Shown one piece after another: positions 49,427-50,877 of a stretch of DNA of 64,000 bases (position 1 is the first letter of the stretch; the number at the start of each line of letters is the position of its first letter). Origin of the DNA: an uncultured Candidatus Solibacter sp. (GTDB taxonomy: Bacteria; Acidobacteriota; Terriglobia; Bryobacterales; Bryobacteraceae); the NCBI GenBank assembly GCA_964385495.1, contig CAYLPH010000021.1:38738-102737 (forward strand), in the 5' to 3' direction. The translations under genes and the position numbers were made by a program. The notes beneath the pieces were generated by a model. The model was not told where the DNA came from, made no database searches, and saw only the letters and a list, made by a program, of their open reading frames with translations.

Positions 49427-50191
49427 ATGTTCGTCCTTCGTACGCTCTCCGGTCTGCTTGTACTTGCTGCGTTGGCTGCCGGCGCCGGCCCGCTTGGTTA
49501 CGATTGCCGGCGTGCTTCGACCCCCGTGCGGATCGATGGCAAACTCGACGACCCGGCGTGGCAGACCGCCCCGTGGACCGCGGACTTCGTCGACATCGAG
49601 GGCGACGCGAAGCCCCGGCCCCGATTCCTTACCCGCGCCAAGATGCTCTGGGATGACCAGTACTTTTACATCGCCGCCGAACTGGAGGAGCCGCACGTCT
49701 GGGCTACGTTGACGAAACACGACGCCGTCATCTTTCACGACAACGACTTCGAAGTCTTCCTCAACCCATCCGGCGACACGCTCAACTACTTCGAATTCGA
49801 AATGAATGCGTTAAACACAGGCTGGGATCTCTTCCTGCCAAAACCCTACAAGAAGCAGGGCAAAGCCGACAATAGCTGGGAGATTCCCGGTCTGCGTACT
49901 GCTGTCCAGGTGCAAGGGACACTCAATGATCCGCGCGATCAGGATCGTGGCTGGACGCTGGAGATTGCCTTCCCCTGGACTGCCTTTGCGTCGAAGGCGC
50001 CGGTCAAAAGGCCCAAGCCCGGCGAATCCTGGCGGGTGAACTTCTCCCGCGTCGAGTGGCGCGTCGAAATCCGCGACGGCCGCTATGTCAAACTGCCGGG
50101 CTTAAAGGAAGACAACTGGGTGTGGTCGCCGCAAGGGCTCATCGACATGCACGTCCCAGAGATGTGGGGCTACGTGCGATTCGTTAATTGA
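49427..50191 (+). CDS. carbohydrate-binding family 9-like (DOMON-like) secreted protein
   Basis: 254-aa ORF. ...VRIDGKLDDPAWQTAPWTADFVDIEG...MLWDDQYFYIAAELEEPHVWATLTKHDAVIFHDNDFEVFL...YFEFEMNALNT. Confidence 0.8.
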   Translation: MFVLRTLSGLLVLAALAAGAGPLGYDCRRASTPVRIDGKLDDPAWQTAPWTADFVDIEGDAKPRPRFLTRAKMLWDDQYFYIAAELEEPHVWATLTKHDAVIFHDNDFEVFLNPSGDTLNYFEFEMNALNTGWDLFLPKPYKKQGKADNSWEIPGLRTAVQVQGTLNDPRDQDRGWTLEIAFPWTAFASKAPVKRPKPGESWRVNFSRVEWRVEIRDGRYVKLPGLKEDNWVWSPQGLIDMHVPEMWGYVRFVN

Positions 50192-50877
50192 GATTGGATA
50201 GCCGCTTCTAACGCCTTTGGCCGGAATCCGAATGGGCCAGGGGCGCTCTTGAACTGGATGCGGCCGTCCTTGTCGATGAGGTACAGCCGGTCAGGCCACC
50301 CTGTATAGGCGCGCTCCACTGGGTTGTCCAAGCCATCCACCAGCGCGGGGATCTCGATTCCCAACTTCCGCACGCAAGACTCGGCCACGCCGAAACGCTC
50401 CGCTTCTGTCGTCGGTCTTGCGAAGATGACGTCGTCCTTTATGTTCGATGGCAACTGCCAAAGGTCGCTCGGATGCGCCTCTTCGATGTAGATCACGAAG
50501 AACTCGGCTTTGTCGCGGTAGGTGTTGTAGAGCTTGTTGAGGGCGGGAACCTCCCGCCGGAAGGGCGGTCAAGTGTAGCTGCCGAACAGCAGTACCACCG
50601 GACGCTTGCCGCGGAACTCGGACAGCCGCACCCGCCCGGACTTATCGTGCTTCGGCAATTCGAAGTCAGGAGCCATGTCCCCAATCGCCAAGGCGCCCGC
50701 GCGCGCCCGGTTCCACATCGGCGGAAACGGCATCGCGTACATCGCGAACGGCGGCAGCCGCTTCATGTAGCGGCCGAACTCCTCGGGCGGCTGCGTCATG
50801 GCCCGGTATGTCATCCCCAGAAATGCCGCATACACAGCGGCAAGCGTTACGGTGGCTAGGACAAAGCGGCGAAGCAT
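50170..50877 (-). CDS. iodothyronine-deiodinase-like thioredoxin-fold protein, probable selenoprotein (UGA-Sec at codon 103, nt 50571-50569)
   Basis: Track ORFs 50569-50877 and 50170-50496 are in the same frame, 24 codons apart. Read-through gives ...RPVVLLFGSYT-U-PPFRREVPALNKLYNTYRDKAEFFVIYIEEAHPSDLWQL...PDRLYLIDKDGRIQFK.... This matches the deiodinase active-site block with the UGA at the Sec position. The N-terminus has a TM anchor. Confidence 0.7.
50542..50558 (-). promoter_or_regulatory. SECIS-like hairpin GGCGGG-AGGUU-CCCGCC downstream of the in-frame UGA
   Basis: The mRNA reads UGA-CCGCCCUUCC-GGCGGG-AGGUU-CCCGCC. This is a 6-bp GC stem starting 10 nt after the UGA, with the apical loop containing GGU starting 16 nt after it. 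Confidence 0.5.

Follow-up and report, generated by a model that had tools for sequence, protein, structure and literature searches.

The catalytic UGA codon of a deiodinase-like gene from an uncultured Candidatus Solibacter is very probably read as selenocysteine

Why is a deiodinase-like gene of an uncultured Candidatus Solibacter sp. interrupted at its catalytic position by an in-frame UGA, and how is that codon read? The gene lies on the minus strand of a 64,000-nucleotide (nt) stretch of contig CAYLPH010000021.1 (assembly GCA_964385495.1, positions 38,738 to 102,737 of the forward strand), the whole of which we refer to as the window and in whose coordinates all positions are given, unless a related locus is named. 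A sequence-only reading of the window had proposed an unannotated selenoprotein, with the UGA translated as selenocysteine (Sec) and a hairpin directly downstream that resembles a bacterial selenocysteine insertion sequence (SECIS). We conclude with high confidence that 50170-50877 on the minus strand is one intact gene for a deiodinase-like protein with a predicted membrane anchor, and that its UGA is read as Sec with the help of this hairpin. The kind of gene is itself already known from other bacteria, as discussed below. The coding features are as follows.

50170-50877, minus strand: predicted deiodinase-like selenoprotein coding sequence, 235 codons including UGA-103, followed by a TAG stop at 50172-50170.
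50569-50571, minus strand: predicted Sec codon, in-frame UGA, codon 103, at the catalytic position by alignment with Dio3 and Dio2.

Translation of this interval gives a single 235-codon gene with only one internal stop, the UGA at codon 103. In the list of open reading frames (ORFs), the gene appears as two pieces, 50569-50877 (102 aa, ending ...VVLLFGSYT) and 50170-50496 (108 aa, beginning MIYIEEAHPSD), that have a common frame and are separated by 72 nt; all of these coordinates, together with the TGA at 50571-50569, had been given in the sequence-only reading and were reproduced. The minus strand around the TGA reads TTC GGC AGC TAC ACT TGA CCG CCC TTC CGG CGG GAG GTT CCC GCC CTC AAC, and the same two-fragment layout of the gene is also present in 14 contigs from the same organism. 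Several sequencing runs contain exact copies of the window's proteins, and the proteins that cluster with them at 90% identity carry the annotation "Bryobacterales bacterium." As a test of chance, we considered the 102 in-frame TGAs of the window that have at least 50 stop-free codons on each side. Coding-type composition on both sides is seen for three of them, at 8436, 41643, and 50571. The first two were rejected as recoded codons, since the TGA at 8436 terminates the predicted gene 6828-8438 and the one at 41643 runs antisense to the predicted gene 38881-41880. The TGA at 50571, with a third-position GC content of 0.84 on each of its two sides, is the sole one of the 102 that is clear of other predicted genes, and two-sided homology was found for it only; the composition test gave no further selenoprotein genes in the window.

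To place the gene among its relatives, 5.8 billion proteins were searched and one genome per GTDB species was scanned; the scan returned at least 593 stretches encoding relatives, of which the best 80 loci, at 55-65% identity, were analyzed. These loci are almost all from Acidobacteriota (Bryobacterales, Solibacteraceae, Terriglobia), and TGA is found at the Sec column in 80 of 80, with open frames on both sides. When loci from metagenomes are added, TGA is present in 91 of 91 (83 of them distinct), and the U-P-P-F motif, where U is the UGA-encoded residue, is present in all 83 distinct sequences. More distant full-length homologues (∼235 aa, 42-57% identical) have Cys at the same column, which was verified as TGC or TGT in the DNA for four of them (P0001, P0028, P0031, P0044). 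The occupancy of this column by Sec or Cys had been put forward in the sequence-only reading as a check on the proposal, and the answer is TGA in close relatives and Cys in distant ones. A pseudogene created by a nonsense mutation, or a pair of independent small genes, would be in keeping with the automatic calls of 102 and 108 aa and with the GTG start of the downstream piece, but neither can explain why species that are only 55-65% identical retain this TGA in 91 of 91 loci, with open frames, and coding constraint, on its two sides. Moreover, the 72 nt left uncalled between the two ORFs code for PPFRREVPALNKLY, the best-conserved peptide in the family, and neither gene half by itself is a complete thioredoxin fold; we consider this explanation highly improbable.

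The protein search also returned full-length JGI proteins with Trp (W) or Gly (G) at the Sec column (P0002-P0027, P0070) and many C-terminal fragments of ∼130 aa. Taken at face value, the former would suggest that the organism assigns UGA to Trp or Gly (codes 4/25). However, the DNA of one such locus (L005:1860-2573) has TGA and the stored protein is not reproduced under code 11, and the W forms are therefore artefacts of the gene caller; translation of short JGI contigs with genetic code 4 or 25 produces spurious Trp or Gly at this column. In the window, TGA ends 14 of the 46 predicted genes, and the sole TGA in coding-like sequence off other predicted genes is that at 50571. A sense-UGA code is effectively refuted by the TGA stops and the caller artefacts, and we give it next to no credence. 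The C-terminal fragments, for their part, are the second halves of split genes: in L006-L010, a call of 102-103 aa is followed, after 18 nt, by a call of 132 aa, and NCBI, ENA, and Logan calls consist of fragments of ∼102 aa and ∼130 aa (e.g., P0110, "hypothetical protein [Acidobacteria bacterium]"). Annotation pipelines thus either split the gene, as the sequence-only reading had expected of standard gene callers, or place W or G at the TGA.

For profile and sequence searches of the product, Cys was used in place of the internal stop. The Pfam family T4_deiodinase (PF00837), whose curated gathering threshold is 27 bits, was matched at 98.4 bits (E 5.3e-28) over positions 74-231 of its 237, AhpC-TSA and Redoxin giving weaker matches. 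The NCBIfam model NF038285, "deiodinase family protein," was matched in its catalytic domain with 205.9 bits (E 1e-60), below its 250-bit cut-off, and the match is restricted to profile positions 177-341 of 347 rather than covering the full length expected of a member; NF038285 has ∼176 N-terminal residues, as against a 63-residue N-terminal region in the window protein. Among all PDB sequences, the best phmmer matches are mouse Dio3 (4TR3, E 1e-19) and Dio2 (9H48, E 5e-19). In the alignment to 4TR3, the UGA column coincides with the Sec-to-Cys residue of FGSCT-C-PPF, and the same holds for 9H48; YIEEAHPSDLW is aligned with YIEEAHPSDGW of the deiodinases and DRLY with ERLY. The parallel with the deiodinase motif that the sequence-only reading had pointed out is thus borne out by alignment to both structures. 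The features of the protein are as follows.

50560-50586, minus strand: active-site block F-G-S-Y-T-U-P-P-F (residues 98-106, U being the predicted Sec), nearly invariant in the family and matching FGSCT-U-PPF of Dio3 and FGSAT-U-PPF of Dio2.
50458-50490, minus strand: Y-I-E-E-A-H-P-S-D-L-W block (residues 130-140), with the equivalents of Dio3 Tyr197, Glu200, His202, and Trp207.
50374-50376, minus strand: codon of Cys168, a candidate resolving thiol, the only Cys of the protein and at least 90% conserved in the family.
50809-50865, minus strand: residues 5-23, FVLATVTLAAVYAAFLGMT, a hydrophobic stretch near the N-terminus that is predicted to form a single membrane anchor.

Residues Y130, E133, A134, H135, and W140 are invariant in a set of 51 sequences. 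With Dio3 residue numbers obtained by counting from Sec170, the Dio3 residues Ser167, Thr169, Tyr197, Glu200, His202 (H135 in the window protein), Trp207, and Arg260 are conserved in the product. The N-terminal segment contains the highest Kyte-Doolittle 19-residue window of the protein (1.93), and the N-termini of the homologues are likewise hydrophobic. For the structure, we relied on a Cys homologue, P0001 (57% identical to the window protein), modelled with AlphaFold2. This model (mean confidence score, pLDDT, 96.4) has a long helix at residues 2-30, and its top PDB matches are Dio3 (4TR3, TM score 0.79, E 1e-13) and Dio2 (9H48, TM score 0.81), with ResA (E 1e-9)/TlpA and peroxiredoxins ranking behind them. 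By its profile matches, its alignment to Dio3 and Dio2, and the model of the homologue, the product is a thioredoxin-fold protein of the iodothyronine deiodinase family PF00837, with a predicted N-terminal membrane anchor.

The hairpin downstream of the UGA comprises the following features.

50541-50558, minus strand: predicted bacterial SECIS hairpin inside the gene, spanning nt +11 to +28 as counted from the UGA, with the GGCGGG/CCCGCC stem at 50542-50558.
50548-50552, minus strand: SECIS apical loop A-GGU-U, with GGU at 50551-50549 closed by an A-U pair.

The hairpin first proposed, GGCGGG-AGGUU-CCCGCC at 50558-50542, 10 nt past the UGA and with its loop starting after 16 nt, was recovered in the window sequence. 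Comparison of 81 distinct sequences, with nt counted from the UGA, yields a family structure with the pairs +11/+28, +12/+27, +13/+25, +14/+24, +15/+23, +16/+22, and +17/+21, a bulged nucleotide at +26, and a GGU loop; in this bulged register, 98.9% of cells are paired. The top four pairs of the stem as originally drawn hold across the family, but its two lowest pairs fail in ∼45% of the family sequences, and the unbulged register is 85.2% paired. The window's own sequence, which is identical to the family consensus across the SECIS, permits both registers, the unbulged one (-13.3 kcal/mol) being more stable than the bulged one (-9.8 kcal/mol).

The family structure is under selection at the RNA level. 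The pair +12/+27 is GC in 40 sequences, CG in 35, and GU in 4, and the pair +17/+21 is AU in 77 and CG in 2; the covariation score was reached by 0 of 500 shuffles, and the signal is destroyed when the partners are slid. On a neighbor-joining protein tree, the GC/CG switch at +12/+27 requires ∼10 events, as compared to ∼27 with shuffled tips, and is therefore not a single inherited change. The two nucleotides that covary each occupy the third position of a codon (Arg CGG/CGC, Ala GCC/GCG), so the changes are synonymous. Conversely, the codons underlying the top of the stem and the loop are frozen (Arg CGG in 83/83, Glu GAG in 81/81, Val GUU in 78/82), whereas the remaining Val, Glu, and Arg codons of the same stretch use all synonyms, the freezing being confined to the stem top and loop. 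Published constraints on bacterial SECIS elements (bSECIS) are a loop of 3-9 nt with the pattern N1-G-[G|U]-N-N2, an upper stem of 4-16 bp, a spacing of 16-37 nt between UGA and loop, and a minimum free energy (MFE) of at most -7.5 kcal/mol; in the bSECIS model, a G is found within the first two loop positions (PMC13188914). The window hairpin, with a loop AGGUU (or an A-U-closed GGU), a stem of 6-7 bp, a spacing of 16 nt, and -13.3 kcal/mol, satisfies these constraints, and in the bulged register 73 of the 83 family members reach the limit of -7.5 kcal/mol. The geometry had been held in the sequence-only reading to be that of a bacterial SECIS; to the agreement with published constraints, the covariation and the frozen synonymous sites can now be added.

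Among the relatives, there is one locus (L095:895-1548, plus strand; P0032) in which the TGA is replaced by CGA (Arg) while the hairpin is perfect (7/7 pairs, GGU loop), which we ascribe either to a sequencing or assembly error or to a very recent inactivating or altering mutation. The metagenome-assembled genome (MAG) RI_231 has two TGA-containing deiodinase-like paralogues on separate contigs, L012 (WGMB01000005) and L014 (WGMB01000015). Three carriers are labelled as non-acidobacterial: L050 (a Chlamydiota MAG, on a 2.5 kb contig), L054 (Binatia), and L073 (Verrucomicrobiia). For L050, whose contig is short and which shares with L049 from Acidobacteriales exactly the same peptide around the Sec codon, contamination during binning is a likely explanation.

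A number of results weigh against the reading of UGA-103 as Sec, or against parts of it. Within the 64 kb window, selA, selB, selD, and tRNA-Sec are absent, as judged by ARAGORN, which found tRNA-Ala only, and by Pfam searches of ∼30 window ORFs together with precomputed Pfam results for 40.5-60.9 kb; the presence of the Sec machinery in the organism's own genome is therefore something that we infer. The single-sequence fold of 50510-50580 is no better than that of shuffled sequences (z = -0.41), which makes the support for the hairpin comparative. An Rfam search, at both gathering and E-value thresholds, gave no SECIS match, its sole match being a sub-threshold hit to M23 on the other strand. 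The four Cys forms available as a control are mixed: the hairpin is lost in two of them (L091 and L093, 3/7 pairs) and kept in the other two (6/7 and 7/7 pairs). In a pairwise HMMER alignment that is itself uncertain, the product has Pro, Thr, and Pro, respectively, where Dio3 has Arg275, His219, and Cys239. We take His202 and Arg275 to be the thyronine-binding clamp of Dio3, and His219 and Cys239 to be accessory residues; with Arg275, His219, and Cys239 not kept, a claim of thyronine-like substrate binding is weakened. Finally, there is no conserved gene neighborhood: the window's neighbors, including the amine-oxidase-like gene described below, are not found beside the orthologues.

Some details belong with these results. 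A competing 5' hairpin, which is the choice of the single-sequence MFE calculation, was rejected, being without covariation and broken in 35 of 81 sequences. The two Cys forms that keep the hairpin are L092:231-956 (plus strand), with 7/7 pairs and the GGU loop, and L094:5660-6382 (plus strand), with 6/7 pairs, in both cases after the Cys codon; with a control of four sequences, the retained pairs are at most suggestive of a relic of a former Sec codon.

Regarding the Sec machinery, no tRNA-Sec was found near the gene in the 83 related loci. When E. coli SelA and SelD were compared with all loci by tblastn, a single SelD match was obtained, in the Acidobacteriaceae MAG locus L081. This selD gene (3697-4746, minus strand; TIGR00476, 371 bits) has an in-frame TGA of its own at the equivalent of E. 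coli Cys17 (KAAG-U-ASKL) and lies 5.3 kb from the deiodinase-like orthologue of the same MAG. Neither selA nor selB was found beside it, the neighbors including FtsH, a transporter, a phosphatase, and a histidine kinase. Acidobacteria have also been recorded as having selenoproteins (PMC1794560). An intact gene with a consensus SECIS, the Sec-containing selD of L081, and this record together suggest that the genome from which the window derives is competent for Sec.

Might the UGA instead be read without the Sec pathway? An opal-suppressing allo-tRNA, a SelC*-like tRNA-Cys, or a near-cognate tRNA-Trp would place Ser, Cys, or Trp at position 103, and since Acidobacteria carry 8/4 or 9/3 allo-tRNAs able to act as nonsense suppressors (PMC5389517), we keep Sec-independent read-through as a minor rival; that the Sec machinery is not seen in the window speaks in its favor as well. 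A generic suppressor, however, needs no local RNA signal, whereas the hairpin found here has SECIS geometry and is under strong selection as RNA. In addition, the Cys found in homologues at the UGA column is the classic Sec/Cys signature, one of the carrier genomes has a Sec-containing selD, and general suppression would allow further coding in-frame TGAs, of which none are seen in the window. On balance, Sec-independent read-through seems to us very unlikely, and decoding of UGA-103 as Sec, because of the downstream in-frame SECIS hairpin, is the reading that we adopt.

How would decoding as Sec proceed, and what would the protein do? A short G+C-rich stem capped by GGU would form in the mRNA 10 nt past the UGA, within the reading frame, and by analogy with E. 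coli fdhF and SelB, this hairpin would tether SelB-GTP-Sec-tRNA(Sec) at the ribosome, allowing Sec to be inserted when the UGA occupies the A site. Sec would thereby be placed in the T-U-P-P-F active-site turn, as in animal deiodinases. By analogy with deiodinase and peroxiredoxin chemistry, a Sec-based two-electron redox cycle is the most likely chemistry: the selenolate would attack the substrate and become oxidized, and the selenenyl intermediate would be resolved either by Cys168, through a selenenyl-sulfide, or by an external thiol. The assignment of Cys168 as the resolving thiol is prompted by its being the protein's only Cys, and it should be regarded as a candidate for that role. The substrate may be a halogenated aromatic compound, reductively dehalogenated in the manner of the deiodinases, or else a peroxide or a disulfide, in a peroxiredoxin/ResA-like reaction.

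As only His202 of the clamp pair is retained, and as soil is not expected to contain thyroid hormones, a role as a dehalogenase is a possibility only, and we found no experimental studies of bacterial deiodinase-family members in the literature. The clade with the animal-type T-U-P-P-F site comprises hundreds of soil and freshwater species. We think it unlikely that this acidobacterial clade is a true Sec-dependent reductive dehalogenase of natural halogenated or iodinated phenolics and the prokaryotic counterpart or ancestor of the animal deiodinases; if true, it would constitute a cobalamin-independent, oxygen-tolerant route of dehalogenation in soils.

The genes around the selenoprotein gene give no hint as to its substrate. 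It starts 12 nt after the end of an FAD/NAD-binding amine-oxidase-like gene and is convergent with a CBM9 gene; given the 12-nt distance, the amine-oxidase-like gene and the selenoprotein gene may be co-transcribed. The longest ORF of the amine-oxidase-like gene, 50890-51921 (minus strand), overruns a tRNA-Ala(CGC) at 51883-51958 (minus strand), and the gene as called has 309 aa and starts at 51819. Clustering of the flanking ORFs revealed no partner common to the loci; the largest cluster, a large protein found in 16 of 80 loci, was judged to be a chance neighbor and set aside. A relative of that large protein, with CarboxypepD_reg and outer-membrane beta-barrel domains, is encoded beside the L095 gene. 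The deiodinase-like gene thus behaves as a stand-alone gene, and its context is uninformative on the substrate. Elsewhere in the window, at 47250-48470 (minus strand) and thus 1.7 kb away, lies the gene for a TlpA/Redoxin-like protein of 406 aa, which contains the motif WCPNC and is extended considerably at its N-terminus, and adjoining this gene is a small cytochrome c3/c7-like gene at 46741-47253 (plus strand); no link between this pair and the selenoprotein gene was found.

To what extent is the gene new? Sec- and Cys-containing bacterial deiodinase-like proteins with a bacterial SECIS were reported in 2005 from the Sargasso Sea by Zhang, Fomenko and Gladyshev (PMC1088965), and the bacterial deiodinase-like family is included, under PF00837, in reviews of prokaryotic selenoproteins (PMC9312934, PMC13188914). 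Like the window gene, members of that family belong to PF00837 and have a catalytic in-frame UGA, Cys homologues, a SECIS directly downstream, and a presumed redox function. They differ in that, compared by tabulated motif, the reviews' representative is UxxC (PMC9312934, PMC13188914), whereas the window protein has U-P-P-F and a single distal Cys168, and in that the 2005 family members come from marine metagenomes, whereas the clade of the window gene is from soil and freshwater Acidobacteriota. The description as an unannotated selenoprotein that was given in the sequence-only reading therefore stands as to the decoding and overrates the novelty, this kind of gene having been described in 2005 (PMC1088965). 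Family and recoding have been known since then, and the gene is a further, mis-annotated member rather than a new kind of system.

With the vertebrate deiodinases DIO1-3, the window protein has in common an N-terminal anchor, a thioredoxin/peroxiredoxin-like domain, and the S-x-T-U-P-P-F and Y-I-E-E-A-H-P-S-D-x-W blocks. It differs from them in its overall sequence (∼30% identity) and, by the pairwise alignment, in not keeping His219, Cys239, and Arg275, the last of these being one half of the thyroxine clamp; the SECIS of the vertebrate genes is a kink-turn element in the 3' untranslated region, whereas that of the window gene is a short in-frame hairpin beside the UGA. The bSECIS of the E. 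coli fdhF type resembles the predicted SECIS of the window in being a hairpin within the ORF, 3' of the UGA, with a small loop in which G is followed by G or U and with a bulged stem nucleotide, but its sequence is unrelated, and the window stem is short (6-7 bp) with a spacing at the allowed minimum. ResA/TlpA/DsbE proteins and 1-Cys or atypical 2-Cys peroxiredoxins, which are the next-best sequence and structure matches, are of the same fold class and have an N-terminal anchor; unlike them, the window protein is without CxxC, has the deiodinase blocks, and would carry Sec where they have their peroxidatic or nucleophilic Cys.

What the present analysis adds to the family is a SECIS structure for the acidobacterial clade that is supported by covariation, with independent compensatory changes, together with the universality of the Sec form among the closest 80 species and a documentation of the systematic mis-annotation. 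The locus should be annotated as one selenoprotein gene with a Sec translation exception, and its splitting into two hypothetical fragments is an error that affects hundreds of Acidobacteriota genomes. The Sec form being the rule in Bryobacterales and Terriglobia, the finding implies that abundant soil bacteria depend on selenium.

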